A stretch of 64,000 nucleotides of DNA, taken from the NCBI GenBank assembly GCA_031415995.1, contig JANOSS010000105.1, positions 14,089-78,088 of the forward strand, read 5' to 3'. Origin of the DNA: Caulobacter sp. Lineage in GTDB: Bacteria; Pseudomonadota; Alphaproteobacteria; Caulobacterales; Caulobacteraceae. Each line of letters opens with the position of its first letter. Position 1 is the stretch's first letter. Below the pieces are notes generated by a model. The model saw nothing but the letters and a program-made list of their open reading frames with translations, did not search any database and had not been told where the DNA came from. Position numbers and translations under genes: made by a program. Below are positions 9,046 through 43,285 of the stretch, one piece after another.

Positions 9046-9053
9046 TTTCGGCC

Positions 9054-9156: not shown

Positions 9157-9251
9157 AGCTAAACCGATCCCTTGATCCCCTCGCGGATCTTCGCCACGCA
9201 GGCGTCCACGGGCCGGTGGACCAGCGAGGCCTGTCGGCGCCATATGGGCGC

Positions 9252-10285: not shown

Positions 10286-10288
10286 GCC

Positions 10289-11995: not shown

Positions 11996-12054
11996 GGGAT
12001 TTCTTTCCGGGGTCCACGGCGCCGCTTGGGCGTTTCGTGCGTTAGCGCCACAGC

Positions 12055-12072
12055 ACAACAGGAAGATGACGC
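12055..12072 (-). promoter_or_regulatory. Possible Pho box upstream of phoD
   Basis: Minus strand GCGTCAT-CTTC-CTGTTGT, 11-bp periodicity resembling CTGTCAT-N4-CTGTCAT; second half weak. Confidence 0.35.
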
Positions 12073-12381
12073 ATGTCGAGTGAAGGCCTTCACGTTCCCC
12101 GCGAAAAACTCAGCCGCAAGACCCTAAACCGCCACTACGCCATCACCTCGCTGATCGAGGAGTTCGAGGCGGTGGACTGGTATCGTCAGCGCGCAGATGA
12201 CTGCGACGACGTCGAGCTGAAGAAGATCCTGCTGCATAACGCCCGCGAGGAGCTGGAACACGCCGCCATGGTGCTGGAATGGCTGCGGCGAGACGATCCC
12301 GAGACCGACGAACAGCTGCGCAAGTACCTGTTCAAGGACGGCTCGATCGCCGGCCACGAGGAAGAGGCGGTCGGAAAATAG
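12073..12381 (+). CDS. Encapsulin-associated ferritin-like protein (EncFtn type)
   Basis: AITSLIEEFEAVDWYRQR and HNAREELEHAAMVLEWLRR match the EncFtn ferroxidase signature (EExEAVDWY, ExEH). Confidence 0.85.
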   Translation: MSSEGLHVPREKLSRKTLNRHYAITSLIEEFEAVDWYRQRADDCDDVELKKILLHNAREELEHAAMVLEWLRRDDPETDEQLRKYLFKDGSIAGHEEEAVGK

Positions 12382-12393
12382 GCGCCGAGACTT

Positions 12394-12425
12394 CTGCTCT
12401 GCCCGGCCAAGGCCGGGCAGAGCAG
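12394..12425. terminator. Strong hairpin between convergent genes
   Basis: ctgctctgcccggcc-aa-ggccgggcagagcag, 15-bp perfect inverted repeat. Confidence 0.7.
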
Positions 12426-12435
12426 TTATCATTGC

Positions 12436-18159: not shown

Positions 18160-18264
18160 CCGCGAGAGAAAGCCGTGACAGGGACTTGCGTTCCCGCGAC
18201 GACACCGCTAGGTATCGCGCCCTCGACCTCAGGCCCTTTAAAAAGGGGCTCACGAACGGCGCCT

Positions 18265-18354
<90 letters not shown>

Positions 18355-18580
18355 CTACCCTGTGAATTTCCGGAACTTTTCGCCACCGCCGCCCACCAAA
18401 ACACACTATCTCGATTGGCGATTGCGATTGCGTACGCAGGCTGTTGGCGGGCGCCTGGGGGCCCTGCGGGATTTCCTGGGCGCCATGCCGCGCGGTAGGG
18501 ATCCGGGCGTCAATGCTTGCGGATTGGTTGGTTCCAGCCCCCGTCGGGGACCGGAACCTTGGGAAGCCCCGCAACAGGGA

Positions 18581-18592
18581 TGGTCTATACCA
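18581..18592. promoter_or_regulatory. PhnR/PhnF-type operator, site 1
   Basis: TGGTCTATACCA, identical to site 4; lies downstream of the phnR stop. Confidence 0.7.
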
Positions 18593-18658
18593 AAATAGGG
18601 ACATTTCGACGCCTGCGCAGCGCGCTCAAGGAAAGCGCCCGTACGTGTCCGGCGAAGG

Positions 18659-19378
18659 TCAACGCACGCGGATATCGACGCTGATCTTGAGGGCGTCATG
18701 TCGCCAGTGCTCGCGGTCGAACTCGACCACGCGCCCCTGTGCATTGTAGCAGGTGCGCTCCACGCTGAGCCCAGGCAGGCCCGACTTGACCCGCAGGGCT
18801 TCGGCTTCACCCAGCGTCAGGGCGCAGGGCCGCATGTCGACCTTGTTGCGCGCGACGCCGATGCCGTAGACCGATTTCAGAACGCTGGTCAGCGAGCCGT
18901 CGAGATCGTGCTCCATAAGACCTGGCGCCAGGGAGGCGTCGACGACGATGCTCTCGATCAGCACGGCCCGGTCATCGATCGAGCGCCGGCGGCGGATCCA
19001 GTACATCGGCGCGCCAACGGGGCGTGAAAAGATCTGCGCCAGCATGCCGTCGCAGGCGATCTCGACCTTGCTGAGCGTCTCGGTCGCCGGCCGCCGCCCT
19101 TGCGCCTCGACATAGGACATGAAGCCCTCCCAGCGGGTCGGGTCATAGACCACCGGCGGCGGGGAAACGTACCAGCCGCTGCGGTCCTTTCGATAGATCA
19201 GCCCCTCGGCCTCAAGCTGAAACAGGGCCTCGCGAACGGTGCCCCGCGCCACGCCGCCGCCGACCTGCAACTGGCGCTCTGACGGCAGCCGTTCGCCAGC
19301 CTTCAGTTCGCCACTGACGATCCGCACGGCGATACCGTCGCGGACTCCAAGATAATGGAGAGTGTCGGACTGATGCAT
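18659..19378 (-). CDS. phnR: GntR/HutC family regulator with UTRA domain, PhnR-like
   Basis: LPSERQL, GLIYRKDRSGWYV, YDPT, DLDGSLT and WRHDALKISVD match Salmonella PhnR as recalled. Confidence 0.85.
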   Translation of the reverse strand: MHQSDTLHYLGVRDGIAVRIVSGELKAGERLPSERQLQVGGGVARGTVREALFQLEAEGLIYRKDRSGWYVSPPPVVYDPTRWEGFMSYVEAQGRRPATETLSKVEIACDGMLAQIFSRPVGAPMYWIRRRRSIDDRAVLIESIVVDASLAPGLMEHDLDGSLTSVLKSVYGIGVARNKVDMRPCALTLGEAEALRVKSGLPGLSVERTCYNAQGRVVEFDREHWRHDALKISVDIRVR

Positions 19379-19503
19379 CGGAAAGACCTGTCAGCGGTCG
19401 AATCCCGCCAGCGGCAAGGATGGGAGCCCGCTCCGTCAAGGTCAAGAAACGGGATCAAACCCCTGACGCCCATTCTCGACATGATCGCGGCTTCACGAAA
19501 GTT

Positions 19504-19537
19504 TTGCCAAGCATAAGCCGATTTTGGTATATACCAA
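19504..19537 (+). promoter_or_regulatory. Sigma70-type promoter with operator site 2 over the -10
   Basis: TTGCCA (19504-19509), 16-bp spacer, GGTATATA inside the perfect palindrome TTGGTATATACCAA (19524-19537). Confidence 0.8.
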
Positions 19538-19560
19538 TCTAGCAACCAGGAGGCGGATCC

Positions 19561-19716
19561 ATGACCACCCACCTTCGCACACGCGGCGACGACCACGGGC
19601 ACAATCCAACCCCGAGCTCAGCGGGCGGCCCGCTGCCGGCCCAGCGCCTGGTCGCCCCTCTGGAAACGGAGCGGAAAAGCCGCACCGACCCCAGCATCGG
19701 ACGGCGGCTGCTGTAA
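19561..19716 (+). CDS. 51-aa small ORF (leader peptide or scar of a deleted gene)
   Basis: AGGAGG RBS 7 nt before ATG, first ORF after the operator; MTTHLRTRGDDHGHNPTPSSAGGPLPAQRLVAPLETERKSRTDPSIGRRLL. Confidence 0.45.
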   Translation: MTTHLRTRGDDHGHNPTPSSAGGPLPAQRLVAPLETERKSRTDPSIGRRLL

Positions 19717-19757
19717 GCGCGCTCGCCCAATTCCGACCCTGTCAGCACCACGGATAC

Positions 19758-20342
19758 ATGATGACGACACGTCCTGCGGCCGATGCTTTCGTGGCCGAAC
19801 TCGCCGATCTCTTCGCCCGACTGGGCGGCCTGCGCTACGGGGAAGACGTCAGCCAGCTGGAGCACGCGCTGCAGACGGCGCATCATGCCAAGGTCGACAA
19901 CGCGCCGCCCGCCATGATCGTCGCCGCCCTGCTGCATGACGTAGGCCACCTGATGCAGAGGGCCGGCGAACACGCCGCCGACCTTGGCATCGATACGCGC
20001 CACGAGCACATCAGCGCCGGCTATCTGGCGCGGGCGTTCGGCCCGGCGGTGACAGAGCCGATCCGCCTTCACGTGGCGGCCAAGCGCTACAGGGTGGCCG
20101 TGGACCCCGCCTATTTCGCCCGCCTCAGCAAGGCGTCCCTGCAGAGTCTGGCTCTGCAGGGCGGCCCGATGCGTGAGGCCGAGATCGAGGCGTTCCTGGC
20201 CGAGCCGGCGGCGCAAGCCGCCCTGCGACTGCGCGGCTACGACGAAGCGGGCAAGGCCCAGGACGCCGAGGTGGCCGGTTTCGAGGCCTATCACGACCAT
20301 CTTCGAGATCAGATCGATCGCGCGGACGAAGTTTCAGTCTGA
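19758..20342 (+). CDS. phnZ: PhnZ/TmpB-like HD-domain diiron oxygenase (oxidative C-P cleavage)
   Basis: RYGE, QLEHALQ, ALLHDVGH, RHE, LHVAAKRY, SLALQGGPM and LRGYDEAGK; all PhnZ-type ligands present. Confidence 0.85.
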   Translation: MMTTRPAADAFVAELADLFARLGGLRYGEDVSQLEHALQTAHHAKVDNAPPAMIVAALLHDVGHLMQRAGEHAADLGIDTRHEHISAGYLARAFGPAVTEPIRLHVAAKRYRVAVDPAYFARLSKASLQSLALQGGPMREAEIEAFLAEPAAQAALRLRGYDEAGKAQDAEVAGFEAYHDHLRDQIDRADEVSV

Positions 20343-20412
20343 TCGCGAAGCCACGCCAGGGCCGCGACAAGCCGCTTCTCGTGCGCTGCGGGCTGTATCT
20401 GCGAGCGGCGGT

Positions 20413-20530
20413 CTTGAGCGTTTTCCGATAAGTGTGAAACGGTTATCGGTTCGAAAAACGCTCTAAACTTCTGATTTGGAGCCCTTTTCGCCCGGCCCTG
20501 ATGAAGCCATCAGGTCGGAAAGGGCTCTAG
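20413..20530 (+). repeat. CIR/Bru-RS-like intergenic repeat, copy 1
   Basis: Two tandem hairpins bounded by (T)AGAGC..GCTCTA; near-identical to 45550-45668 and, reversed, 49100-49217. Confidence 0.9.
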
Positions 20531-21471
20531 ACCTCGTCTGAGACCAGATGCTGCAAGACGCGTTTCTCGAGCACCAGCAGCGCGCTGGCGTTGTTGGTGC
20601 GCATGACCAGACCTGCGGCGAGCGGCCTGACGGCCTCGTGTACGGCGCGAGCCAGGCGCAGGAAGTCTGATCGCCCCCGTCCTGCGGCGCCATGCAAGGC
20701 GCAGAGCTGGCGCCAGTCGGATACAAAGTCCTCCAGCAGCATGCTGAACCGCGCAGCCCGGACCCTGGCTTCGGCGGTATCGGCAGCGAGCGCCAGTTCC
20801 GCGCGCAGATCGTCGACCAGCAGTTGCACTTCAGCGGCAGGCATCACCGGCGTGCGCTGGTCACCCTCGGTAAGCAAACTGGGACGCATCCCGGGATCCC
20901 AGGCCACCGTCCGCCATTGGGCGCGCGGCGGCGGCTGTCCACGGACGAATTGCCAGAAGGCCGCTGTGCCGCTGGTGTCCGCGACGAGATGGATGCGCTC
21001 GGCGCTGGCCCTGTTTTCCACATGGTGCGGGCGCCAGTTATCGAAGATCCAGGCTTCGCCAGCGGCCATGTGCACCGATTGCCCGTCGCAGTGAAAGGCG
21101 ACCTCCGGCCAGGTGAAGACCGGAATGTGCAGCCGCACCCGCGTATGCCAGTGGTAGTTGATATCGGCGTGCTCGGGCACGCTCGCGCCTGGGGCCAGGC
21201 GCATCAGCCGTGAGCGGCTCCAGACCACGCCAAAGGCCGCCAGGGCCTGGGTTGTATAGGGCATGGCCTCGAGCCAGCGCGTTGGCAGCATCTGCCCATG
21301 GACCGAGTCCGTCTCAGCCCCGCCCGCGCTGATCAACCGCGCCGCACTGTTGCCGGGCAAGCGGTCCGGGTGTGACGTCCAGGCTTCGTCTGGCAAGGCC
21401 GCGACCTCAGCCTGCAAACGCCCGACGTCGAAGAGCAGGGGGAGGTGGAAGAAGGGGCGTGAAAGCCGCAT
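20527..21471 (-). CDS. Aspartyl/asparaginyl beta-hydroxylase family Fe(II)/2OG oxygenase with C-terminal helical extension
   Basis: RSRLMRLAPG, PEHAD, RLHIPV, GEAWIFDNWRPHHVEN, RIHLVAD (HxD..H triad). Confidence 0.85.
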   Translation of the reverse strand: MRLSRPFFHLPLLFDVGRLQAEVAALPDEAWTSHPDRLPGNSAARLISAGGAETDSVHGQMLPTRWLEAMPYTTQALAAFGVVWSRSRLMRLAPGASVPEHADINYHWHTRVRLHIPVFTWPEVAFHCDGQSVHMAAGEAWIFDNWRPHHVENRASAERIHLVADTSGTAAFWQFVRGQPPPRAQWRTVAWDPGMRPSLLTEGDQRTPVMPAAEVQLLVDDLRAELALAADTAEARVRAARFSMLLEDFVSDWRQLCALHGAAGRGRSDFLRLARAVHEAVRPLAAGLVMRTNNASALLVLEKRVLQHLVSDEV

Positions 21472-21474
21472 GGG

Positions 21475-23406
21475 TCAGGCCTTGTAGCTGGCGAGCGCGT
21501 CACCCAGCCCGTCCCGCAGAGGCGCTAGCCATTGCTCGTAAGGCCGCCACTGCCCGAGGCCATCACGGCCGATGGGCTGGCGCACCTGCTCTGAACTGGG
21601 CGTGCGCACGCTGCGCTGGGTCTCGTGGAAAGCCAGGCAGGCCGGCTCAAAGGGCAGCCTGCAACCCTCCAGCATACGCTGTACGCTGTCTTCAAGGTCC
21701 TCGACCACATCCTCGTACGCCACCTTCAGCACCCGCCCCGGCAGCACCTCGCCCCAGTGCCTCATGAGGTCGAGATAGGAGCGATAGTGACGGGCGAGAT
21801 GATCCATGCCGTAGGTGAATTCCTGGTTGGTGGTCCCAAACAGCTGCTTGAGGTTGCTGAAGCAGCACGCCATGGGCTCGCGACGCACATCGATGATTGT
21901 CGACCGCGGCAGGATGAGATGGATCAGGCCGATGTGCCAGAAATTGTTGGGCATCTTGTCGATGAAGACGGCCTTCCCCAGCCTGCGATAGGTGCGGGTT
22001 TCGGCCAGAAAGCGCGCGCCGAGCGCCCGGGCGTCCTGCGCGGTAAGGCGCAGCAGGGCCTCGGGATCCAGCGGCAAGCCGCAATCAGGATCGCGGCCGC
22101 AGAGCTCGCCTGCATACCGGTCGATTTCTGTCAGCTCCTGCGTGCCTTCAACCTGGGAATGGGAGGCCAGGATCTGCTCGATCAAGGTTGACCCCGAACG
22201 CGGCAACCCCACGATAAAGATGGGTGCCGGATCGGCCAGACCCCAGTCAGCGCGCGCGGCAAAGACTTCGGCGGTGAAGACCTGTTTCAGTCGCAGGACG
22301 CAGGATTCCGCGACCTCGGGGCGATATCGGCTGGAGACAGCGCGGATCGCATTGCCGCGATCGTAATATTGCCAGGATGATGCGTAGTCTGCCCGGTCCT
22401 CCAGCGCCTTGCCCAACGCAAAACAGAGATAGACGCGGTCCATGTCCTGGACGGTCGGCTGGGCTTGCGCAGCGCGCAGGCGCGCGATGTCATCGTCGGT
22501 GAAGCGGTAGGTCTTGAGGTTGGCCAGGCTAAACCAGGCCACGCCGTAGTCTGGCCTCGCCGCCAGGGCGGCGCGATAGTCCGCAATGGCGTCCTGTTGC
22601 CGGCCCGTGACCTTCAGGGCGTTCGCCCGCCAAAGACGCAGGTCAGCGACTTCCGCCCCCAGGAGGGCTGGGCTGGCCAGCAGCCGTCCATAGAGATCAA
22701 TCAGCGGCTCATGGTCGCCCAGAGCGATGCAGGCCGCGCCGTACTGCTTGAGATACTGGCGATTGTCGGGGTCGTGTCCGAGCAAGTGCTCGGCCTCCTG
22801 CCGCGCCTGCAGGGGCTTTTGCTGCTGCAAGAGCACCATGGCGTAGTCGAGGCGCGCAGCGTGATAGTCCGGGGCGCGATCAAGCACAGACTTCAGCAAC
22901 GCCTCGGCCTCGCCAGGCGCCCCGCTCGCCATGCAGATACGCGCCAGCAGGCGAAGGGCGCCGACGTTTCCGCCATCCGTGTACAGATAATCACGGATGA
23001 CCTCCTCGGCCGAGGACAGATCGCCGTCGGCAAGCAGGCTGCTGGCCGCCACCACCGCCGGCGGGAGCTGCCTCAGCATCGCCAGATGCTGTTCGGCCGT
23101 GGCCGCCTGGGCCGTATCGCCGACCATGCGGTAGAGCTGTTCCAGCATGTCCCAGCTCGCCGGCAGGGTCGGGTTGAGGCGCACGGCCTCCCGCAGCGCC
23201 TCGATGGCGGCCGGCGCATCGCCAAGCACCACATGGCAGTGGCCGCGCTCCTGATACAGGCGGCTGAACCCGGGATCCAGTTCCTGGAGCCGCGCGAGGC
23301 TGGCCAGGGCTTCCGCGATGCGTTGGCCCGACCGCAGTTCCCTGGCTTCCTGCAACAGCGCGTCGCGATCGCGAGACGGGGGGCTGGAACTCTCGGAGGG
23401 CGTCAC
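21475..23406 (-). CDS. TPR-repeat sulfotransferase
   Basis: Several TPRs; PIFIVGLPRSGSTLIEQIL PAPS-binding loop; IDKMPNNF; VRTPSSEQVRQPI. Confidence 0.9.
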   Translation of the reverse strand: MTPSESSSPPSRDRDALLQEARELRSGQRIAEALASLARLQELDPGFSRLYQERGHCHVVLGDAPAAIEALREAVRLNPTLPASWDMLEQLYRMVGDTAQAATAEQHLAMLRQLPPAVVAASSLLADGDLSSAEEVIRDYLYTDGGNVGALRLLARICMASGAPGEAEALLKSVLDRAPDYHAARLDYAMVLLQQQKPLQARQEAEHLLGHDPDNRQYLKQYGAACIALGDHEPLIDLYGRLLASPALLGAEVADLRLWRANALKVTGRQQDAIADYRAALAARPDYGVAWFSLANLKTYRFTDDDIARLRAAQAQPTVQDMDRVYLCFALGKALEDRADYASSWQYYDRGNAIRAVSSRYRPEVAESCVLRLKQVFTAEVFAARADWGLADPAPIFIVGLPRSGSTLIEQILASHSQVEGTQELTEIDRYAGELCGRDPDCGLPLDPEALLRLTAQDARALGARFLAETRTYRRLGKAVFIDKMPNNFWHIGLIHLILPRSTIIDVRREPMACCFSNLKQLFGTTNQEFTYGMDHLARHYRSYLDLMRHWGEVLPGRVLKVAYEDVVEDLEDSVQRMLEGCRLPFEPACLAFHETQRSVRTPSSEQVRQPIGRDGLGQWRPYEQWLAPLRDGLGDALASYKA

Positions 23407-24032
23407 CGCGCGGCGCCGGCCAGCAGAAACGGCTCCAGCCAGCTGGGTTCCGGCTGGTCGGCGTCATAGTACTCGAAGATCAGATGGACGCGGTCGGTAT
23501 CACCGTCGTTGCGCACCCAGTGTGGACCCAGGTTGTTGACCTCCACCGCCTCGCCCGGTGGGAAATGGTGTTCACCGCCGCCGAAGAAGGACACCACCTG
23601 GGGATTGGTCGACAACGGCACATGGATCTTGTGCGGCCATTTCGCGGCGGGGTTGGCGTCGATATGAGGGTGGATCACCCCGCCCGGCGGCATCCTTGCC
23701 AACATCACTCGAGGAAACACTCCGCGCGCATAGCCATAGTCGCGGACGGCCTGAGCCAGCACCGGCTCCAGCAATCCGCGCCAGTCGGGCCAGGCCGCGC
23801 GATCGTGCGAACTGCGCCAGTCGCGAGGACCGTCGATAAACCGGAAAACGATGTGGCGGGTCGCGTCCAGCACCTCAAACCTGTTGGGCTTGCCCGCGTT
23901 TTCCGCAGCCCAGACGTCCGCGGCAATCTCCAGAACGGCCGCCTGCAGCGCGGCGATGTCGACCGGCCCGAGCTTGCGGACGCCGGTGGTCTTGCGCGGG
24001 TTGGCGGCAGGCGCAAAAGGGGTAGCGTTCAT
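23403..24032 (-). CDS. Aspartyl/asparaginyl beta-hydroxylase family Fe(II)/2OG oxygenase
   Basis: RVMLARMPPGG, HPHID, KIHVPL, NNLGPHWVRN, DRVHLIFE. Confidence 0.85.
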   Translation of the reverse strand: MNATPFAPAANPRKTTGVRKLGPVDIAALQAAVLEIAADVWAAENAGKPNRFEVLDATRHIVFRFIDGPRDWRSSHDRAAWPDWRGLLEPVLAQAVRDYGYARGVFPRVMLARMPPGGVIHPHIDANPAAKWPHKIHVPLSTNPQVVSFFGGGEHHFPPGEAVEVNNLGPHWVRNDGDTDRVHLIFEYYDADQPEPSWLEPFLLAGAAR

Positions 24033-24667
24033 CGCATATCTTCGAAGCTGTAGCCGAACTGTTCCAGATCCTGGGCGTAGCGGGCGGCGACGCCGTCGAT
24101 CAGGTCCTGGTCGTAATAGTGACGATAGTCACCGTGATGGCTGCCGTTGACGCGGTCCAGAGGGCGGGAGGGAATGCCGATGCGCGCGCAGATCGCATCA
24201 TACGACCCCTGCATATCCTCGACGTGGCCGATGTGGTCGGCCATCAGGGTCTTGCCGTCCTCGCCCACCAGAAGCGAGGCTTGTGGCTGGAACAGGATGT
24301 GGTGTTCCGGCGGCTTCTCGAAAAGAAAGTGCCGCATGACCGCCTGCGGTTGCTGCTCAAAGACGTCACCGCCCCGCAGCATGAAGGCGCAGTACGAGAC
24401 GAAGCGATCGAACGGATTGCGCACGAAGGCGAACTTGAAATAACCGCTGAAGGCCGCCTCGCCGAGATAGGGGCGCACCTGCTGCAGAGACAGGTGGCCA
24501 TGCCGGATCGCCGCCAGATCCTCCCAAGGGAAGCGCTTGTCGACGAACAGCCCGACCTGCTCGAGGTCGCCGTCGCTCAGGTGTTCGCGCAGGGCCTGTC
24601 GCACGGCATGGGTCCCGGTCTTGGGCACGGCGGCGAAGATGAAGCGATGGCTGTGGGAAACAATCAT
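24029..24667 (-). CDS. Sulfotransferase family 2 protein
   Basis: FIFAAVPKTGT 5'-PSB loop and FAFVRNPFDRFVSY 3'-PB motif. Confidence 0.85.
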   Translation of the reverse strand: MIVSHSHRFIFAAVPKTGTHAVRQALREHLSDGDLEQVGLFVDKRFPWEDLAAIRHGHLSLQQVRPYLGEAAFSGYFKFAFVRNPFDRFVSYCAFMLRGGDVFEQQPQAVMRHFLFEKPPEHHILFQPQASLLVGEDGKTLMADHIGHVEDMQGSYDAICARIGIPSRPLDRVNGSHHGDYRHYYDQDLIDGVAARYAQDLEQFGYSFEDMR

Positions 24668-24684
24668 GTTTCAGGGACACCCAG

Positions 24685-24718
24685 AAAAAGCGCCCCACCT
24701 CTCAGGAAGGCGGGGCGC
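24685..24718 (-). terminator. Intrinsic terminator between the TBDR and the sulfotransferase
   Basis: Minus strand GCGCCCCGCC-N9-GGTGGGGCGC-TTTTT. Confidence 0.75.
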
Positions 24719-24741
24719 AAAGTCTACATTAAGCGGTGGCC

Positions 24742-27528
24742 TTAGAACTTGTAGCTAAGCCCAACCATATAGGTCGAGCCGCTCTGGTTCTGGTTGTAGA
24801 GGTACTGGTTCTGGCCCCAGAACTGCGTGTCCTCCTGGTTCGTCAGATTGATACCGTTCAGCGTGAGCTGCAGTTGATCGGTGACGTTCAGGAAGGCCGA
24901 GGCGTCCACATAGGTCGACCCCTCGAAGCCGCGCGTGCTGGCGCTCATGACAGTGGCGCTGTTCCCGGAGAACCAGCGATTGCGGTGGCTCATGGAACCA
25001 CGGACACCCCAGCGCGCGGTCTCGTAGTAGAGCGTGGCGTTGTAGCTGGTGTTCGAGATGCCGGTGAGCGCCTCGTCAGCGTCCACATAGGTGTAGTTGG
25101 CCACCGCACCCAGCTTGTCGAACGGCGCCGGCAGGAACGAGAATTGGCCCTGTGCGGCCAGTTCCACACCGGTCAGCTTCTTGGTGCCGGCGATATTGAC
25201 CGGCATCGAGAACTCTTTGACGATCGTATTGGCCGTGGCGCCCGGGATCGTGGTGAACGGGACGCCCGTCTGGCTGAAGGGGATGTTCTCGAGGGTCTGT
25301 GAGCCGATAAAGTTCTTGATGCTCTTCTGGAACACGCTGGCCGAGAGCAGGCCGTCCACGCCGAAATAGTACTCCGCCGCGAAGTCCAGCGTGTTGTCCT
25401 TGTAGGGCTCAAGGTTTGGATTGCCGCGCGACGCCGAGATGTCGCCGCTATCCGAATTCTGGAACGCACTGCCCTTGGCCGCCATCGAACCCAGGCCCGG
25501 ACGGTTGAGGTTCTGCGTGGCGGAGAAGCGCACCAGCACGTCCGGAGCCACCTCCAGCACCGAGTTCATGGCCGGCAGCACGCCTGAGTAGCTGCCTTCG
25601 ACGTCCGTCGTGCCCAGATAGGCGTAGCTGTCGCCCTGGATCCAGCCGGTGCTGTGGGTGTCAGTCTGATAGCCCCGCAGGCCGATGTTACCGCGGAAGC
25701 GCTTGCCGAAGAGGTCGGTGTCCCAGTCCGCCTGCACATACTCGGAGAAGGTCTTTTCCGAGGTCTCGTAGACGTTCTCGATGTCCTGCAGCGCGCCGCC
25801 CGTACCGTCCTTGTTGGGACCGAAGCGGTGGTACTCGTTGTACTTCGCAAAGGCCTTGGCGTAGTCGCCGACCAGCCACGACCCGAAGCTGTTGGTGAAC
25901 ACCGAGGTGACGTCGGCAACGGCCGTCCCGCGCATCTTGGTCCGGGTTCCATTGACGTTGTCGTCATAGAACAGGTCGATGCCGCCTTGCGTGAACTTGT
26001 GATAGGCCACGCCGGCCCGCAGGGTCCAAACCTCGTTCAGCACGTATTGGGCGTCCAGCACGCCTTCCTGCAGTTCCGACTGATTGTTGAAGCCGCGATA
26101 GTAGAACGAGTCCATCGCGTAGTTGGCGGGGTTGGTTCTATCCCAGCCCGGATACTGGAACGTCGCCGACCGGCCATCGCTGCCATAGTTGGCGATCAGA
26201 TTGCCCTTGGCGCGCATATAGAGCTTGTCGTCATAGGGCGTCTCGTAGGTCGACTTCTCGTAGCCGACATGTCCGTCGATCGTGAGGCGATCCGAGAGGT
26301 CCCACTTGCCGGTCAGCGCCACCTGGTCGAAGTTGTTTTCGTTCAGCGAGCGGCGGTGCTCGCTGCCGAAGGTGGTGCCCGTGACATCGGTCATGGTCAC
26401 GTAGTTGCTGTTGTCCCAGGCCAGGTTGTTGATGACGGACGCCTTCTGGAAGGCGATAGGCCAGACCGTGCTGGCCGCAGTATCGAACGCAACCGAGCCC
26501 TTGGACGCGAGCGGCCGCGTGGCGAGATGCAGTTCGTCGCGATGCGTGGTGTACTCGCCGTGCAGCACATCAAGCGTCAGCAGCAGGTTGTCCACCGGAC
26601 GCCACTGCACAGCTCCCGTCAGACCGAGGCGCTCCTGCTGCGAGTTCCAGGATGAGATGCGGTTGCCATCCGCAAAGTACAGGTCGCCGGACTGGAACTT
26701 GGTCTGCTGCGCAGCGCTTAGCTTGGAGATGTCCAGACCCTTGGCGACCAGGCCCTTCATGGCCGCCGCATCCGGTTTCGTGTAGTTATAGGTATTGTGG
26801 CCCTGTTCCGTGGTCTCACGCTTTGAATAGGCGACCGAGAACGCCACGCCAAACTTGTTGTCCCAGTTCTGGCTGAACAAGGCCGCGATGCGCGGCTGCG
26901 CGTCCTCGGTGTATTCGTTGGTTCCGAGCTTAAACGACACCGCACCCTTGGAGCCCGACGCGTAGTCAAACGGCTTGCCGGTGAACAGGCCGACCGTGCC
27001 GGCCATGCCGCCCTCGTTTTGGGCCGCCTGGAAGGTCTTTTCGACCTCCACGCGGGAGAACAGTTCCGAGGCGAAAATGTTGAAGTCGAAAGCGCGATCG
27101 CGTGAACGCTGGCCGCGGCTGTCCTGGGCGGAATCGACGTTGCCCAGCACCTCCATGCCATTGAGCTGCACACGGGCGAAATCTGGACCCAGGCCCCGCA
27201 GCGAGATCCGCCGGCCTTCGCCCGCTTCCCGGGTGATCTGCACGCCCGGCAGGCGTTGCAGCGATTCAGCCAGGTTGAGTTCCGGGAACTTCGCCATGTC
27301 CTCGGCGACGATCACGTCCTTCTGGATGACCGAATCTCTCTTGATGGCGCGCGCATCGCTGAGCGACTTCCGGTAGCCGGTGACGACAACTTCGTCGACC
27401 AGATCGCCAGAAGCCTGCTGCGCGAGCGCGGCCGATGAATGCGCGCCAGCGACCAGCACCGCTACGGTAGCTAGCAAAAAGCTCTTGAGATGCGGGCGGG
27501 TAGCCCGAACAGGATATCGCTTAAACAT
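24742..27528 (-). CDS. TonB-dependent receptor of the island
   Basis: Signal peptide, DEVVVTG TonB box, NLAESLQRLPGV plug, C-terminal YKF; AAGGA RBS before ATG 27528. Confidence 0.95.
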   Translation of the reverse strand: MFKRYPVRATRPHLKSFLLATVAVLVAGAHSSAALAQQASGDLVDEVVVTGYRKSLSDARAIKRDSVIQKDVIVAEDMAKFPELNLAESLQRLPGVQITREAGEGRRISLRGLGPDFARVQLNGMEVLGNVDSAQDSRGQRSRDRAFDFNIFASELFSRVEVEKTFQAAQNEGGMAGTVGLFTGKPFDYASGSKGAVSFKLGTNEYTEDAQPRIAALFSQNWDNKFGVAFSVAYSKRETTEQGHNTYNYTKPDAAAMKGLVAKGLDISKLSAAQQTKFQSGDLYFADGNRISSWNSQQERLGLTGAVQWRPVDNLLLTLDVLHGEYTTHRDELHLATRPLASKGSVAFDTAASTVWPIAFQKASVINNLAWDNSNYVTMTDVTGTTFGSEHRRSLNENNFDQVALTGKWDLSDRLTIDGHVGYEKSTYETPYDDKLYMRAKGNLIANYGSDGRSATFQYPGWDRTNPANYAMDSFYYRGFNNQSELQEGVLDAQYVLNEVWTLRAGVAYHKFTQGGIDLFYDDNVNGTRTKMRGTAVADVTSVFTNSFGSWLVGDYAKAFAKYNEYHRFGPNKDGTGGALQDIENVYETSEKTFSEYVQADWDTDLFGKRFRGNIGLRGYQTDTHSTGWIQGDSYAYLGTTDVEGSYSGVLPAMNSVLEVAPDVLVRFSATQNLNRPGLGSMAAKGSAFQNSDSGDISASRGNPNLEPYKDNTLDFAAEYYFGVDGLLSASVFQKSIKNFIGSQTLENIPFSQTGVPFTTIPGATANTIVKEFSMPVNIAGTKKLTGVELAAQGQFSFLPAPFDKLGAVANYTYVDADEALTGISNTSYNATLYYETARWGVRGSMSHRNRWFSGNSATVMSASTRGFEGSTYVDASAFLNVTDQLQLTLNGINLTNQEDTQFWGQNQYLYNQNQSGSTYMVGLSYKF

Positions 27529-27547
27529 GAGTGTCCTTCGCCCCAAC

Positions 27548-27559
27548 TGGTATGAACCA
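27548..27559. promoter_or_regulatory. PhnR-type operator, site 3 (variant)
   Basis: ACTGGT-ATGA-ACCAGT about 20 bp upstream of the TBDR start; same TGGT-N4-ACCA spacing. Confidence 0.55.
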
Positions 27560-27775
27560 GTCAGACTAAAGCAGCCAGCGACGACACCCGCGTGACAGCG
27601 CCGTCCCGCACGACGCAATTTGTCCGCTCCGCGCCGCACGTCAGGTCGATTGTGGCCCTGCGGGGGTGACTTTAGGGAATATTGGGCGCTCTATCGGCCC
27701 TGTCGCCCGGCGCATTGACGCTCCTCAACACCCTGACGTCGCGGCTCATTTGGCCAACGGGTCACAGTCGCAAAA

Positions 27776-27809
27776 CTGCCAACTTCTCGTGATATTTGGT
27801 CTATACCAA
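27776..27809 (+). promoter_or_regulatory. Promoter with operator site 4 over the -10
   Basis: CTGCCA, 16-bp spacer, GGTCTATA inside TTGGTCTATACCAA (27796-27809); same geometry as 19504-19537. Confidence 0.8.
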
Positions 27810-27834
27810 TAGTCAGCCGCTGGATGATCGCAAC

Positions 27835-28014
27835 ATGAGTCCAGCGGACAAGCCGGCCCTGAAGGCCTTGCCTCAGACGCGCGGACCATCTCGGCCGCCG
27901 GCGGCGACGCGCAGCAGCGCCGCCGCCGGCGCGGTGATCGACGCCGCCGCCAGACATCCCTTCGCGCTGGCTGCACTTCCCATTCACAGCCCTGATTCAT
28001 GGAGTACGTTATGA
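27835..28014 (+). CDS. 59-aa upstream ORF overlapping the phosphatase start
   Basis: ATG 25 nt after the operator; TGA overlaps ATG 28011; no clear RBS. Confidence 0.25.
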   Translation: MSPADKPALKALPQTRGPSRPPAATRSSAAAGAVIDAAARHPFALAALPIHSPDSWSTL

Positions 28015-29675
28015 AGAATCCGATCCGGGTGATCCCGCTTCTCCTTGCGCTCCTCGCCGGCATGGCAGGCGCGGCCGGCGCCTATGCCGGCGAGGCCCGG
28101 AAGGCAGGCCATGTGATCATCATCGGCGTGGACGCCCTGAGCCCCGACGGCGTGATGAAGGCCGATACCCCCACCCTGCACGACATGATGAAGCGCGGCA
28201 GCTGGAGCATGCATGCCCGCGGCGTGCTGCCCACCACGAGCGGCGCCAACTGGGCGTCCATCATCGGTGGCGCAGGACCAGAGCAGCACGGCGTGACGAG
28301 CAACGACTGGCAGGTGGGCGAGTTCAATTTCCCCGCTTCGGTGACCGGCTCCGGGGGCTTCTTCCCATCCATCTTCCAGGTGCTCACAGATCAGAAGCCG
28401 GAATGGGAACTAGGCTCGATCTATAACTGGGACGGCTTCGGCAATCTCTACGACCACCGGTTCGTGGACTATGACGTCCACGGCAAGGATGAGGACGAAA
28501 CCACCGCGCTGGCGGTCAATTACATCAAGACCAAGCGGCCTGAGTTCCTGTTTGTGCATTTGGATCATGTCGATCACGCCGGACATGCCCATGGCCACGG
28601 CACGCCGCTGTTTTACGAGGCCGTGGCCAAGGCCGACAAGCTGATCGACAAGATCCGCCAGGCCACGGTGGAGGCCGGCATCGCGGACGAGACGGTGATC
28701 CTGGTCACCTCCGACCATGGCGGCGTGGGCAAGGGGCACGGCGGAGAAAGCCTGGCTGAACTTGAAATTCCCTGGATTGCCTATGGCAAGGACATCAAGC
28801 CGGGCCAGCTTGATCTGCCCATCAACACGTTCGACACCCCCGCCACCGCCGCCTGGCTGCTGGGCGCCAAGATCCCCTACGCCTGGCTAGGGCGCGCCGT
28901 GACGCCAATCCTGAAGGGCGAAAAGGCGCCAGAACAAGCCTATCGCTCCAGCAGCTTTTACGCCTCTCCGGTGATCGAACCGGCAAGCGACGGGAATGCG
29001 CCTGCAGGCGGGCTGTTCATCAACCGGACGGCGAAGATGACCATCCGCAACCCCAACGCCGCCGGACAGGTCCGCTACACGCTGGACAGTTCAATCCCCA
29101 CGGTCGGATCCCCGCTTTACACCGGCCCTGTCGAGATCGCTCGCAACACGATCGTGCGGGCCACGCTGTTCGTTTCCGGCCAAGCCGCCAGCGTTCCCGC
29201 CACGGCCTACTTCCGCATCCTCGACCTGAAAGGTCCCGAGGCGCGCGGGGTGAACTACAAGGTGTATCTGCTGCCGGAGACGCCGGTGCGGCTGCCCGAT
29301 TTCTCCCGGCTCGAGCCCGCAACCGCCGGCACATCCCATGAACTGACCATCGACGGGATGACGCTCCCGCGAGGCGACAGCGTGGCGGTGGTCTTCGAAG
29401 GGTATCTCCACATCGCGGCGGCAGGCGCCTACAGTTTCGCGCTCGCCTCCGACGACGGCAGCAAGCTCTATATCGACGGCAAACAGATAGTCGACAACGA
29501 TGGCGACCACGGCGTGGTTACGGCGAACGGCAACATCGACCTGCAGCCCGGCAAGCATGCGATCAGGGTTGAGTGGTTCAATGGCGGCGGCGGTGCCTGG
29601 TTGGGCGCATACTTCGAAGGCCCAGGCATTCCTCGCCAGTTCATCGATCCAAACCTGCTGACGCCGCAGGAGTGA
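28011..29675 (+). CDS. Secreted alkaline-phosphatase superfamily (NPP/phosphodiesterase-like) enzyme with chitobiase-C/Fn3-like and PA14 domains
   Basis: Sec signal; IIGVDAL, PTTSGANW (Ser nucleophile), HLDHVDHAGH, VTSDHG; QVRYTLDSSIP; FALASDDGSKLYIDG and HAIRVEWFNGGGG. Confidence 0.85.
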   Translation: MKNPIRVIPLLLALLAGMAGAAGAYAGEARKAGHVIIIGVDALSPDGVMKADTPTLHDMMKRGSWSMHARGVLPTTSGANWASIIGGAGPEQHGVTSNDWQVGEFNFPASVTGSGGFFPSIFQVLTDQKPEWELGSIYNWDGFGNLYDHRFVDYDVHGKDEDETTALAVNYIKTKRPEFLFVHLDHVDHAGHAHGHGTPLFYEAVAKADKLIDKIRQATVEAGIADETVILVTSDHGGVGKGHGGESLAELEIPWIAYGKDIKPGQLDLPINTFDTPATAAWLLGAKIPYAWLGRAVTPILKGEKAPEQAYRSSSFYASPVIEPASDGNAPAGGLFINRTAKMTIRNPNAAGQVRYTLDSSIPTVGSPLYTGPVEIARNTIVRATLFVSGQAASVPATAYFRILDLKGPEARGVNYKVYLLPETPVRLPDFSRLEPATAGTSHELTIDGMTLPRGDSVAVVFEGYLHIAAAGAYSFALASDDGSKLYIDGKQIVDNDGDHGVVTANGNIDLQPGKHAIRVEWFNGGGGAWLGAYFEGPGIPRQFIDPNLLTPQE

Positions 29676-29861
29676 GGCGTTTGAGGCGGCCCGGTTCCCG
29701 TAGAACGGCATCTGAAGAATTCAGCGAGACCCAGAGATCGTCCGGGCCTTCGCTGATCCTTGCGATTTGCTTTGGAAGCGGAGACCTCTAGGACTCTCCG
29801 GGTTCGCAACCAGCGCGAATCCGGACGCCTGCGGCAGACACCGCCCAATGCAGAGGCTTGC

Positions 29862-31061
29862 GTGACCGACAAAATCAGCGCCGAGGACTGGCTGCAGCAG
29901 GCGGTCATCGCCAGCAACCAGGGTCTGCACCCCCAAGCGCGCGAGGCTTTCAGTCGCGCGCTGTCGATCGACCCGACGCTGGGCGAGGCGATGCTGGGCC
30001 TTGGCCTCTCGCATATGGCGACGCGGGACTTCAGTGACGCCGTCATGCCTCTTCGTCAGGCGGCCGCGACGCCCGACGCGCCGGCGATCTGGCACGCCTG
30101 CCTGGCCCAGGGCCTCTATATGACCGGTGATTTCGCCGGGTGCGCGGAAGCCTTTGAACGCGCCGCGGCCCTGGAACCTCTGGCGACCAACGCCCGCCTG
30201 ACCCATGCCCGGGCCCGCACCTTCGCCAGCATGATCCAGGGCTCTGTGGACGATGCCCTGGCCCGCTATCCAGCCCTGGCCGGCGATGAAGCCGAGGACA
30301 TCGAGGTCATCGCCCGGGAGGCCTTTGCGATCCTCGGCGTCTTTGGACATGCCCCCGCAGCGGCGGCGGTCGGCGCCTGGCGGCTGGCCCGAAGCCCGGA
30401 CGATCAGATCCAGGCCTATCTGCTGCAGGCGGTCAGCGGGGCGGCGGTCGATCGCGCGCCGGCCGCCTATGTCGAGGCGCATTTCGACCGCTTCGCCGAC
30501 AATTTCGACCACCAGCTGGTCGATCTGCTGAACTATCGCGCTCCAGAGCGGATGGCGCAGTTGATGGAAGGTCACGCCGGCCCGTTCGCCGAGATCCTCG
30601 ACCTGGGCTGCGGCACCGGACTTTCGGCCCCCGCCCTCGCGCGCTTTGGCGGTCGCCTGACCGGCGTCGATCTCTCCGGCGGCATGCTGGACAGGGCAAG
30701 GGCGCGCGGCGGTTATGACCTGCTGGTCCAGGCCGAGGCCGTCGCGTTCCTCGACCAGCATCCGGCCGCCTTCGACCTGGTCTTCGCAGCCGACATGGTG
30801 ATCTATTTCGGCGACCTGTCGGACCTGTTCCGGGCAGCCGCAAAGGCGCTGCGCCCGGGCGGCTTTTTCACCCTGAGCACGGAGGTGGGAGCGGAGGGCT
30901 GGACGTTGCTGAGCTCGGGACGCTTCTCTCACGCGGACGCCTACGTCGCCCAGGCGGCGGGCCCTGAGTTTGCGCTGCTGGACCAGGAACCCATCGCCCT
31001 GCGCCACGAGGGCACGGCGCCCGTCAGGGGAACGCTGCACGTGTTCCAGCGGACCGCCTGA
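29862..31061 (+). CDS. TPR-containing SAM-dependent methyltransferase
   Basis: N-terminal TPRs; YVEAHFDRFADNFD, ILDLGCGTG, GVDLSGGML, GRFSHAD; GTG start after AGAGG. Confidence 0.85.
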   Translation: MTDKISAEDWLQQAVIASNQGLHPQAREAFSRALSIDPTLGEAMLGLGLSHMATRDFSDAVMPLRQAAATPDAPAIWHACLAQGLYMTGDFAGCAEAFERAAALEPLATNARLTHARARTFASMIQGSVDDALARYPALAGDEAEDIEVIAREAFAILGVFGHAPAAAAVGAWRLARSPDDQIQAYLLQAVSGAAVDRAPAAYVEAHFDRFADNFDHQLVDLLNYRAPERMAQLMEGHAGPFAEILDLGCGTGLSAPALARFGGRLTGVDLSGGMLDRARARGGYDLLVQAEAVAFLDQHPAAFDLVFAADMVIYFGDLSDLFRAAAKALRPGGFFTLSTEVGAEGWTLLSSGRFSHADAYVAQAAGPEFALLDQEPIALRHEGTAPVRGTLHVFQRTA

Positions 31062-31066
31062 CCCTT

Positions 31067-34528: not shown

Positions 34529-34531
34529 CGC

Positions 34532-37063: not shown

Positions 37064-37083
37064 GGGGTTACTCTCTGGAAAAA

Positions 37084-39590: not shown

Positions 39591-39596
39591 CGCGCC

Positions 39597-43272: not shown

Positions 43273-43285
43273 AGGAAGACCCATC

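Follow-up and report, generated by a model that had tools for sequence, protein, structure and literature searches.

A 64-kb stretch of Caulobacter DNA (the window) holds, at positions 18581-29675, a phnR-like and a phnZ-like gene, a five-gene cassette that begins with a TonB-dependent receptor (TBDR), a secreted phosphodiesterase gene, and four palindromic 12-mers. The region is a decayed copy of a larger conserved locus, and the best explanation of the whole, which we hold to be probable, is that it represents a reduced version of a phosphonate-scavenging regulon under combined control by PhnR and the phosphate (Pho) response. The 12-mers appear to be conserved operators of the adjacent PhnR-type GntR/HutC repressor, with PhnR binding predicted from the distribution of the sites across genomes. 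The regulator gene and the putative PhnR boxes lie as follows.

18659..19378, minus strand: phnR-like GntR/HutC repressor, 239 aa (PF00392 62.7 bits, PF07702 108.4 bits), divergent from the phnZ-like gene
18581..18592: PhnR box 1, TGGTCTATACCA, between tRNA-Ser (18265-18354, plus strand) and the phnR stop codon (18659)
19525..19536: PhnR box 2, TGGTATATACCA, in the divergent control region of phnR and, in relatives, phospholipase C (PLC)-phnZ, between the phnR start (19378) and the phnZ-like gene (19758)
27548..27559: PhnR box 3, TGGTATGAACCA, reading TGGTTCATACCA on the TBDR strand, 17 nt upstream of the TBDR ATG (27531, minus strand) and at about +1 of the TBDR promoter
27797..27808: PhnR box 4, TGGTCTATACCA, over the -10 region of the promoter of the phosphodiesterase gene (NPP-PA14), about 200 nt upstream of that gene

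A pattern scan and gene calls bear out the preliminary description of this DNA, which had placed four 12-mers at these positions, all of them intergenic. The degenerate pattern TGGTMTAKACCA has three matches in the 64 kb (18581, 19525, and 27797), and allowing two mismatches to TGGTATATACCA adds 27548 as the sole further match; the corresponding expectations from shuffled sequence are 0.00 and 0.20. Comparisons across genomes draw on two surveys, neither of them a census: one anchored on phnZ, covering 80 loci of more than 500 matches in species-representative genomes, and one of metagenomes anchored on the cassette sulfotransferase ST2, also covering 80 of more than 500 matches. Boxes number 72 per 466 kb in 22 phnR-bearing loci and 7 per 1,057 kb in 67 phnZ loci lacking phnR, an approximately 23-fold enrichment with phnR. 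This distribution and the conservation of box positions agree with the earlier proposal that the 12-mers are operators of the PhnR-like regulator. A chance origin was considered and is ruled out by the shuffle expectation together with the cross-locus enrichment.

The boxes share the consensus TTGGT(A/C)TA(G/T)ACCAA across loci and in related loci precede PLC/phnZ, DUF5690, PAP2-pbfD-phnX, TBDR, NPP-PA14, and phosphatidylinositol-specific PLC (PI-PLC) genes, at positions that hold in Caulobacter, Brevundimonas, Asticcacaulis, Phenylobacterium, Sphingobium, and unclassified loci. The position of box 2 is kept in all Caulobacter, Brevundimonas, and Phenylobacterium loci. Boxes before phnZ/PLC, the TBDR cassette, and NPP-PA14 are kept in Caulobacter and Phenylobacterium, and that of the TBDR additionally in Sphingobium and further metagenome loci. 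The TBDR box is always a weaker variant, TGGTTCATACCA or TGGTCCATACCA, and is invariant or near-invariant in an alignment of 11 loci from Caulobacter, Phenylobacterium, Sphingobium, and an unclassified genome. Box 4 has counterparts directly upstream of NPP-PA14 in Caulobacter sp. ErkDOM-E (locus L081, at 6860) and in Phenylobacterium L086 (13551). Box 1 occupies the gap in which tRNA-Ser and phnR converge, where it precedes no gene in this strain; its counterparts lie 20-35 nt before the DUF5690 ATG in L001, L003-L005, L007, L009, L085, and L086. The 12-mer at 18581 proposed earlier is thus real, but with the permease gene that follows it in relatives gone, it is an orphan operator. In Rhizomicrobium, where a DeoR regulator replaces PhnR, no box passes the scan, and a two-mismatch remnant lies near the TBDR start.

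The regulator contains both a GntR winged-helix and a UTRA effector domain. It had been likened to PhnR, and PhnR (TIGR03337) is indeed its best NCBIfam match, at 236.2 bits, a score under the curated cut-off, with the next family 156 bits less at 80 bits. Its nearest solved structures are NagR/YvoA, DasR, and 3f8m. The gene adjoins aminophosphonate genes, and in relatives boxes precede pbfD-phnX, DUF5690, and PLC-phnZ. The ratio of nonsynonymous to synonymous substitution rates (dN/dS), computed for the eight retained genes between the window and ErkDOM-E, is 0.015 for the regulator. The core of the boxes, TGGT-N4-ACCA or TGGTCTAGACCA, is the HutC-family dre palindrome of DasR/NagR (PMC4333415, PMC2853113), so that the motif alone cannot name the regulator; its co-variation with phnR does. 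The preliminary description had matched the motif to the Mycobacterium smegmatis PhnF site, TGGTATAGACCA; that site was not found in the literature searched, leaving the match unconfirmed.

A second regulator with GntR and UTRA domains (NagQ-like, 42508-43272) is encoded elsewhere in the window, within a complete N-acetylglucosamine (GlcNAc)-type utilisation locus at 32747-48787. The genes of this nag locus specify a phosphotransferase system EIIBC component, an EI-HPr-EIIA fusion, a GH20 hexosaminidase, two TBDRs, a SIS-domain deaminase-like protein, and a NagA-like amidohydrolase.

Each PhnR box lies 14-25 nt downstream of a conserved direct repeat resembling a Pho box. Three such elements are present in the window.

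19491..19508, plus strand: Pho-box-like repeat CTTCAC-GAAA-GTTTTGC at the -35 position of the PLC/phnZ promoter, including the TTGCCA hexamer of the preliminary description
27581..27598, minus strand: Pho-box-like repeat CTGTCAC-GCGG-GTGTCGT of the TBDR promoter, an exact pattern match, followed after 10 nt by a -10-like TTTAGT
27767..27783, plus strand: Pho-box-like element GTCGCAAAACTGCCAAC of the NPP-PA14 promoter, including the CTGCCA hexamer of the preliminary description

The (T/C)TGCCA-N16-GGT geometry described earlier is recovered at both promoters, with TTGCCA at 19504-19509 and CTGCCA at 27776-27781, each followed after 15 nt by TGGT, at 19525 and 27797, respectively. The hexamers and their spacing are real; their reading as simple -35 elements gives way to one in which they are the promoter-proximal halves of the conserved repeats. 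The PLC/phnZ promoter block TTCACGAAAGTTTCGCC is kept in 10 loci, including Brevundimonas and Phenylobacterium, with variable flanks, and the 17-mer GTCGCAAAACTGCCAAC shows no difference between the window, ErkDOM-E, and Phenylobacterium L086, while its flanks diverge. The DUF5690 promoter of relatives carries a further repeat, CCGTCATCGAnCCGnCATG, that is decayed in both the window and ErkDOM-E. Alignment of 11 TBDR upstream regions shows just three conserved blocks (the repeat, CTGCTTTA, and the box) beneath otherwise unconserved upstream sequence, in the order [C]TGTCAC-N4-RTGTNG, about 10 nt, CTGCTTTA, PhnR box, ribosome-binding site, ATG; TGTCAC-N4-RTGTNG and CTGCTTTA are invariant in the 11 loci. 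The first of these blocks is built as a 7+4+7 direct repeat, like a Pho box, for which we take the Escherichia coli consensus to be CTGTCAT-N4-CTGTCAT. Loci L082, L094, and L100 retain the repeat although their PhnR box is decayed, variant, or missing, as does Rhizomicrobium at its TBDR, where no box passes the scan; this indicates that the two elements are separable. From the placement of the box just downstream of a Pho-like repeat in the -35 position, we infer AND-gate promoters that would require both activation by PhoB and derepression by PhnR. Weak support for Pho control comes from the presence of a non-hemolytic PLC in the C. crescentus phosphate-starvation gene list (PMC11208175, supplement file 4). 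Elsewhere in the window, a PhoD-family phosphatase gene (10289-12058, minus strand) lies downstream of a TBDR gene (12436-14784, minus strand), and the pair looks like a second candidate phosphate-starvation unit. Short stretches upstream of these two genes, inspected as a positive control, contain no clear Pho repeat.

Box 3 and its Pho-like repeat precede the cassette, whose gene order is kept in more than 15 loci.

24742..27531, minus strand: TBDR, first of the five cassette genes (TIGR01782 611.1 bits, cut-off 310; PF07715 Plug and PF00593 barrel)
24029..24667, minus strand: ST2, Sulfotransfer_2-type sulfotransferase, 212 aa (PF03567 46.8 bits; dN/dS 0.11)
23403..24032, minus strand: AspH2, second PF05118 hydroxylase, 209 aa (PF05118 39 bits; dN/dS 0.23)
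21475..23406, minus strand: TPR and Sulfotransfer_3 protein, 643 aa (PF13469 154.7 bits plus TPR families; dN/dS 0.20)
20527..21471, minus strand: AspH1, PF05118-family Fe(II)/2-oxoglutarate (2OG) hydroxylase, 314 aa, last cassette gene (PF05118 56 bits; dN/dS 0.11)

Gene contexts compiled from six look-ups and the ST2-anchored metagenome scan point to membership of this cassette in a phosphonate regulon. Fourteen surveyed loci combine an ST2 identity of at least 74% with 12 kb or more of sequence, and in every one of them the cassette lies beside phosphonate or PLC genes. The joining of receptor, sulfotransferases, and hydroxylases to the phosphonate genes, first proposed from the window itself, is thereby upheld, and regulon membership is well supported by this recurrence. 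The neighbours are PLC and PhnZ in Rhizomicrobium; PLC, PAP2, DUF5690, PbfD, and PhnX in Sphingobium; the whole set with NPP-PA14 in Phenylobacterium; and a TauD-family gene, PLC, and PI-PLC in L087. In L092, pbfD-phnX-NPP-PA14 is divergent from the TBDR, and in Caulobacter L085 the genes from ST2 to phnX are joined by overlapping stop and start codons, save for one 3-nt gap. L100 (WSSedL1CaDRAFT_10000013, 59% GC) has the carbon-phosphorus (C-P) lyase genes phnI/J/K immediately upstream of TBDR-ST2-TPR-sulfotransferase (2294-5063 and 7070-12567), with the AspH genes undetected there by tblastn. This locus had been a candidate for a cassette without phosphonate genes, which the Pfam matches to the adjoining phnI/J/K rule out; three C-P cleavage systems of unrelated mechanism are thus found in company with the cassette. 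In L087, L092, and L100 the cassette has no nearby phnZ. A survey of co-occurrence likewise finds phnR, phnZ, and the whole cassette together in other genomes: seven Caulobacteraceae loci (L001-L005, L007, and L009; six labelled Caulobacter) and one Novosphingobium metagenome-assembled genome. Brevundimonas, Asticcacaulis, and Sphingomonas have phnR and phnZ without the cassette.

The cassette proteins are themselves strongly conserved. ST2 is 83-85% identical across Caulobacter, Phenylobacterium, Rhizomicrobium, and Sphingobium, with well over half of its positions invariant, and its PKTGTH and RNPFDRFVS motifs are invariant in an alignment of 12 sequences (A3). We take these motifs to be the 5'-phosphosulfate-binding loop (PKxGT/S) and the 3'-phosphate-binding element (RxPxxRxxS), respectively, of a site for 3'-phosphoadenosine-5'-phosphosulfate (PAPS). 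Such conservation is unusual for an accessory enzyme, and the TBDR promoter block travels along with it, suggesting that the whole cassette has spread horizontally in one piece. Searches of the PDB by sequence with ST2 and AspH2 return nothing usable, and an AlphaFold2 model of ST2 computed from those 12 aligned sequences, at a mean predicted local distance difference test score (pLDDT) of 39.5, is too poor for a fold search. The TPR-sulfotransferase carries a PRSGST motif, presumably a PAPS-binding loop; its nearest solved sulfotransferase domain is that of protein-tyrosine sulfotransferase 8w5z (E 1e-4), and its TPR part resembles O-GlcNAc transferase (OGT). The PEHAD and PHH segments of AspH1 align to the H-x-D and distal His of L-proline cis-4-hydroxylase 4p7w, a free-proline hydroxylase and its only solved relative. 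AspH2 is 29% identical to AspH1, its paralogue, with the HxD and distal His aligned.

Related enzyme sets also occur in other surroundings. At L139 (2705-17856), a TPR-sulfotransferase, an AspH1-like protein, ST2, AspH2, and a prolyl-hydroxylase-type 2OG oxygenase are encoded among three TBDR genes, with no phosphonate, PLC, or PhnR genes within 10 kb of the enzyme set. Pairs of ST2 and AspH2 at 54-58% identity follow a PepQ-type Xaa-Pro dipeptidase in L147 (7758-11189) and L155 (4213-8870), and L155 also encodes a GH85 endo-N-acetylglucosaminidase; in these other lineages ST2-AspH2 may act on (glyco)peptide-derived compounds.

Between the cassette and the regulator lies the gene for the putative C-P-cleaving enzyme.

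19758..20342, plus strand: phnZ-like HD-domain diiron oxygenase, 194 aa (best match TIGR03276)

The HD protein scores 202.4 bits against TIGR03276 (cut-off 214.6), 164.9 against TmpB (300), and 149.3 against PhnZ1 (300), and its PDB matches are led by TmpB 6npa (114 bits) and PhnZ 4mlm (96 bits). Alignment to 4n71 shows conservation of the residues corresponding to PhnZ Y24, E27, H34, H58/D59, H80, H104, and D161, positions that in PhnZ provide six His/Asp ligands to the metals and the Tyr and Glu that hold the 2-amino group in place. The gene has a dN/dS of 0.27. A TauD-family hydroxylase of the PhnY/TmpA type is found neither among the Pfam-scanned window genes (the larger open reading frames) nor beside phnZ in Caulobacter loci, and 9 of 80 phnZ-clade loci have a TauD-type partner; the clade co-occurs with PhnX in 23 and with PbfD in 20 of the 80. 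Caulobacter isolates that encode this PhnZ include K31 and C. segnis.

At the other end of the region, divergent from the TBDR gene, is the phosphodiesterase.

28011..29675, plus strand: secreted nucleotide pyrophosphatase/phosphodiesterase (NPP)-type phosphodiesterase with CHB_HEX_C and PA14 domains, NPP-PA14 (PF01663 100.7 bits, PF13290, PF07691; dN/dS 0.08)

Inspection of its translation reveals an N-terminal signal-like sequence and PTTSG, DHVDHAGH, and TSDHGG motifs, and its PDB matches include ENPP1/5, Xanthomonas NPP 2gsn, and a phosphonate monoester hydrolase. NPP-PA14 holds the position that PLC occupies in L083, L086, L087, and L099, and is co-directional with pbfD-phnX in L092. The two secreted phosphoesterases thus alternate divergent to the TBDR, and either could cleave a phosphonate monoester linkage in lipids or glycans and so free the headgroup. 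With this gene, the identities given in the preliminary description (a GntR+UTRA regulator, an HD oxygenase, two PF05118 proteins, PF03567 and TPR-PF13469 sulfotransferases, a TBDR, and a PF01663 esterase) are all recovered by Pfam and NCBIfam.

Most Caulobacter copies of this locus are larger than that of the window. The fuller loci add two phosphocholine-type PLCs (TIGR03396, 886 and 765 bits) with N-termini that on inspection resemble twin-arginine translocation (Tat) signals, a DUF5690 membrane protein directly downstream of phnR, and, between AspH1 and phnZ, a flavin adenine dinucleotide (FAD)-dependent oxidase of the TIGR03364 family (PbfD, 405 bits) and PhnX (TIGR01422, 333 bits). These extra genes exceed curated cut-offs where such exist (phosphocholine-type PLC TIGR03396, PhnX, and TIGR03364). 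The TIGR03364 family is the PbfD class, which converts 2-aminoethylphosphonate (AEP) and N-methyl-AEP to phosphonoacetaldehyde and replaces PhnW in phnX-only clusters (PMC10590968). Mapping by blastn and tblastn against the fuller locus L004 identifies three deletion breakpoints in the window, where the following features now lie.

18519..18561, minus strand: 5' stub of the DUF5690 permease gene, about 40 nt, start codon lost (blastn of window 18519-19456 to L004 6765-7716; L004 DUF5690 start at 6807)
19562..19717, plus strand: 51-codon open reading frame (Shine-Dalgarno sequence AGGAGG), what remains of a Tat-exported phosphocholine-type PLC once about 2.2 kb had been deleted (TIGR03396 score of the intact PLC, 765 bits)
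20416..20530: 112-nt dispersed repeat with two hairpins, resembling miniature inverted-repeat transposable elements or repetitive extragenic palindromes, in the phnZ-AspH1 gap where relatives carry pbfD-phnX

Homology to L004 begins at 18519, and the promoter alignment at the stub shows CATGAG changed to CAAGG in the window. At the second breakpoint, window 19456 to 19640 corresponds to L004 7716 to 9877 and replaces 2.16 kb of PLC; at the third, window 20320 to 20531 replaces 2.0 kb of phnX-pbfD. The only trace of the lost coding sequence found by tblastn is a 53-residue match to the PLC C-terminus (PLC_b residues 657-709, at 19555-19713). The 51-aa reading frame was considered as a new small protein and rejected, since tblastn and blastn identify it as the PLC remnant. 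L004 PhnX and PbfD have no tblastn match in the 64 kb, and DUF5690 is found nowhere in the window. The lack of phnWX noted in the preliminary description therefore reflects deletion of pbfD and phnX, along with PLC and DUF5690, all of which are present in relatives, and not how the system is designed. ErkDOM-E has the same reduced layout at 89-94% nucleotide identity, and the eight retained genes have dN/dS values of 0.015-0.27, implying that they are still under purifying selection.

The 112-nt repeat has further copies at 45553-45668 (plus strand) and 49103-49214 (minus strand). Contigs from metagenomes and metatranscriptomes cover it at a depth of 600-2,700, versus about 15 in the flanks, and show loose ends to either side of it. 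ErkDOM-E lacks the repeat at this spot, its flanks being contiguous, and in Rfam the repeat has a weak, sub-threshold match to a fragment of the Brucella small RNA (sRNA) CI408. At the other edge of the rearranged region, downstream of phnR, is a tRNA gene.

18265..18354, plus strand: tRNA-Ser(CGA) (ARAGORN; Rfam tRNA 59.5 bits)

ErkDOM-E has, downstream of phnR (L081 16521-20639), a type I restriction enzyme R subunit gene and AAA/SMC-like genes, where the window (18265-18520) has tRNA-Ser. By this difference the tRNA-Ser flank looks like a hotspot of island insertion or rearrangement, and such a rearrangement may have removed the DUF5690 gene. The Rfam scan of 17.5-30 kb returns the tRNA and sub-threshold matches only. 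One of the latter, to the proteobacterial sRNA sX4 at 18255-18423 (40.8 bits, gathering score 70), overlaps tRNA-Ser and its 3' flank and is probably driven by it. Window proteins are 85-98% identical to Caulobacter proteins, and the DNA is recovered almost whole in one freshwater-sediment metagenome run.

Starting from the observed sites, their conservation and enrichment, and the gene content, deletions, and selection described above, we infer PhnR and PhoB binding, the inducer, the substrates, and the direction of flow in the following scheme. Phosphorylated PhoB would activate the promoters under phosphate limitation, while PhnR would block the -10/+1 region until an aminophosphonate inducer, most likely AEP or a close derivative, releases the repressor. 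In an outer layer, secreted Tat-dependent PLCs, PI-PLC, PAP2, and NPP-PA14 would free phosphonates or phospho-headgroups from lipids or glycans. Uptake would then proceed through the TBDR in the outer membrane and the DUF5690 permease in the inner membrane, and C-P cleavage would follow in the cytoplasm, via the PbfD oxidase and PhnX phosphonatase or, for 1-hydroxy-aminophosphonates, via the PhnZ-type oxygenase. The TBDR is always followed by ST2, AspH2, the TPR-sulfotransferase, and AspH1, which would place four presumably cytoplasmic enzymes in the regulon. The window lineage, shared with ErkDOM-E, has deleted PLC, the permease, and pbfD-phnX while keeping PhnR, PhnZ, the receptor cassette, and NPP-PA14.

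A number of points weigh against this scheme. Both the regulator (236.2 bits versus 296.75) and the HD protein (202.4 versus 214.6) score below the equivalog cut-offs of TIGR03337 and TIGR03276 and are for that reason termed PhnR-like and PhnZ-like rather than members of those families. The 12-mer core is common to DasR/NagR-type HutC regulators, such that another paralogue could in principle bind it. The Pho-box reading depends on likeness to the E. coli consensus, not to one from Caulobacter; the phosphate-starvation paper considered above gives no Caulobacter PhoB motif, and the Pho pattern, with one mismatch allowed, finds at least one match in 57 of 100 shuffles and is non-significant within one window. 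With the permease and pbfD-phnX lost, what the retained genes achieve in this strain is not evident. The sole transcript evidence consists of low-depth metatranscriptome contigs over the TBDR and phnR, and the survey counts derive from 80 of more than 500 matches in each case.

Regulon membership of the cassette does not by itself assign a substrate to its enzymes, and direct phosphonate chemistry by the sulfotransferases and hydroxylases, as the preliminary description had proposed, is doubtful: the same set occurs with TBDRs and without phosphonate genes at L139. It is unlikely, in our view, that the ST2-AspH2 and TPR-sulfotransferase-AspH1 pairs constitute new cytoplasmic phosphonate-catabolic steps which, alongside the first phosphonate-dedicated TBDR, hydroxylate and then O-sulfate an imported aminophosphonate or carrier moiety. 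Such hydroxylation and O-sulfation could supply the PhnZ-type oxygenase in place of PhnY or activate the group for elimination before PbfD/PhnX, PhnZ, or C-P lyase. An alternative to which we give somewhat more credence, while still considering it less than even, is that the cassette serves more generally, as an accessory to TBDRs or in phosphate starvation, for instance by sulfating and hydroxylating a lipid or glycan of the envelope or an exported protein and thereby sparing phosphate, and shares Pho control and a neighbourhood with the phosphonate genes while its enzymes never touch phosphonate. A co-regulated yet chemically separate role of this order of likelihood could also lie in handling some other part of the imported molecule. 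The Pho-like repeat is found at every cassette promoter examined save those of L093 and L098, where the segments viewed are inconclusive, and it outlasts PhnR control; L139 and the distant ST2-AspH2 pairs beside PepQ prolidase and GH85 genes point the same way, and the likeness of the TPR-sulfotransferase to protein-tyrosine sulfotransferase and OGT-type TPRs suggests a protein or peptide substrate. PAPS-dependent sulfation is, moreover, costly and typically anabolic. LpxO and OlsC, which we understand to be PF05118-family lipid hydroxylases, offer a precedent, yet the LpxO model gives just 20.6 bits against a cut-off of 500. A module of this kind would not account for the PhnR box found near +1 of the TBDR promoter in 11 or more loci of several genera, for coding regions that overlap from the cassette into pbfD-phnX (L085), or for the association with three unrelated C-P cleavage systems, and the TBDR as first gene favours import over envelope biosynthesis.

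A narrower proposal, which strikes us as quite improbable, would have an AspH-type Fe/2OG oxygenase replace PhnY/TmpA, such that C1 hydroxylation of AEP or of N-alkyl or otherwise modified AEP feeds PhnZ and the strain keeps a complete TBDR-AspH-PhnZ oxidative route. The scarcity of TauD-type partners noted above, which extends to their absence near phnZ in the Caulobacter and sphingomonad loci examined, would fit this idea, as would the retention by the reduced lineage of exactly PhnZ and the cassette under purifying selection and the intact HxD...H triad of AspH1, whose only solved relative hydroxylates a free amino acid. However, PhnZ occurs with PbfD and PhnX and without cassette or TauD in Brevundimonas, Asticcacaulis, and many Planctomycetota loci, and with PhnR, PLC, and DUF5690, again lacking both, in Sphingomonas. 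This PhnZ clade can therefore act on a pre-hydroxylated environmental substrate and does not require an AspH surrogate for PhnY. The cassettes of L087, L092, and L100 that have no phnZ nearby, and the two sulfotransferases, would also be left unexplained by an AspH-PhnZ route. Finally, the 12-mers could be generic dre-like HutC sites of another paralogue, such as the NagQ-like protein, and the regulon one of amino sugars. The shared dre core, the complete nag locus with its own GntR+UTRA regulator, and the chitobiase-type C-terminal domain of NPP-PA14 all invite this reading. No PhnR-type 12-mer with up to two mismatches lies in the nag locus or near its HutC regulator, however, and the boxes flank phnR, track its presence across genomes, and precede pbfD-phnX and DUF5690 in relatives. 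We regard an amino-sugar regulon as highly improbable and, by the lack of such sites in the nag locus, reject NagQ-type control of the 12-mers.

The genes that follow the region of interest may extend one of its transcription units.

29760..32779, plus strand: TPR-methyltransferase (29760-31061) and second TPR-sulfotransferase (31067-32779), by Pfam, with gaps of 85 and 6 nt

By their spacing, these two genes are possibly co-transcribed with NPP-PA14; in ErkDOM-E, a TPR-GT41 gene is inserted in the region after NPP-PA14. Farther along, the window contains a chemotaxis cluster (51736-61460) with CheB, CheR, CheA, and two methyl-accepting chemotaxis proteins, one of which (59868-61460) bears an N-terminal protoglobin sensor domain.

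Phosphonates constitute a major reservoir of organic phosphorus, and the catabolic modules known for them (PhnWX, PbfD/PhnX, PhnYZ, and C-P lyase) cover C-P cleavage in the cytoplasm and not release from lipids or glycans or passage across the outer membrane. The locus family under a PhnR- and PhoB-controlled scavenging regulon would propose the full chain, from secreted phosphoesterases to a dedicated TBDR, a DUF5690 permease, and C-P cleavage. It would attach four very strongly conserved enzymes to phosphonate use and give DUF5690 a candidate function, and K31 and C. segnis offer candidate experimental systems. The window additionally illustrates locus decay in which operators and accessory genes outlive the core enzymes, a caution for inferring phosphonate use from annotation of metagenomes. 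That the cassette steps had not previously been tied to C-P metabolism, as first noted from the window, agrees with full-text literature searches, which found no paper linking the cassette gene types with phosphonate metabolism; searches on DUF5690 and on the cassette combination with Caulobacter found nothing relevant. Relative to the literature searched, the new elements are a TBDR in a phosphonate regulon; a secreted arm made up of PLCs, PI-PLC, PAP2, and NPP-PA14; a likely role for DUF5690 as carrier in the inner membrane; the sulfotransferase/AspH cassette; and the paired Pho-like/PhnR-box promoter layout.

The closest regulatory counterpart is the PhnR regulon of Salmonella enterica, in which the TIGR03337 regulator represses phnSTUV-phnWX for AEP use. 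Regulator family and architecture are the same here: the regulator adjoins aminophosphonate genes, palindromic operators overlap promoters, and Pho-like repeats would imply Pho dependence. The presumed targets differ, being PbfD/PhnX, PhnZ, DUF5690, PLCs, the TBDR cassette, and NPP-PA14 rather than an ABC transporter and PhnW/PhnX; the regulator scores under the equivalog cut-off, and the window has lost the phosphonatase branch. Clusters of pbfD-phnX without phnW (Zangelmi et al. 2023, PMC10590968) are matched by relatives that carry the TIGR03364 oxidase and PhnX above cut-offs. The loci described here add PLCs, a TBDR, two sulfotransferases, and two PF05118 hydroxylases, and the window is without pbfD and phnX; the text of that paper makes no mention of TonB, sulfotransferase, or phospholipase. 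With the PhnY/PhnZ and TmpA/TmpB pathways, the locus shares an HD protein that keeps the metal-ligand and Tyr/Glu-aligned residues, but not a TauD-family partner. The boxes have the TGGT-N4-ACCA core of DasR/NagR dre operators, and NagR and DasR are the nearest solved structures of the regulator, although regulator clade and gene set are different and a weaker conserved variant, TGGTTCATACCA, stands at the TBDR. In overall plan the locus resembles the TBDR nutrient loci of Caulobacter and Xanthomonas, such as the NagQ/NagR GlcNAc locus, with a receptor of the same subfamily (TIGR01782, 611 bits) and the same succession of secreted hydrolase, TBDR, inner-membrane carrier, cytoplasmic enzymes, and local HutC-type repressor, an arrangement that the nag locus of the window also exemplifies. 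It departs from them in its presumed phosphonate or phospho-headgroup substrates, in promoters that pair Pho-like repeats with PhnR boxes, and in the sulfotransferases and hydroxylases that take the place of glycoside hydrolases.

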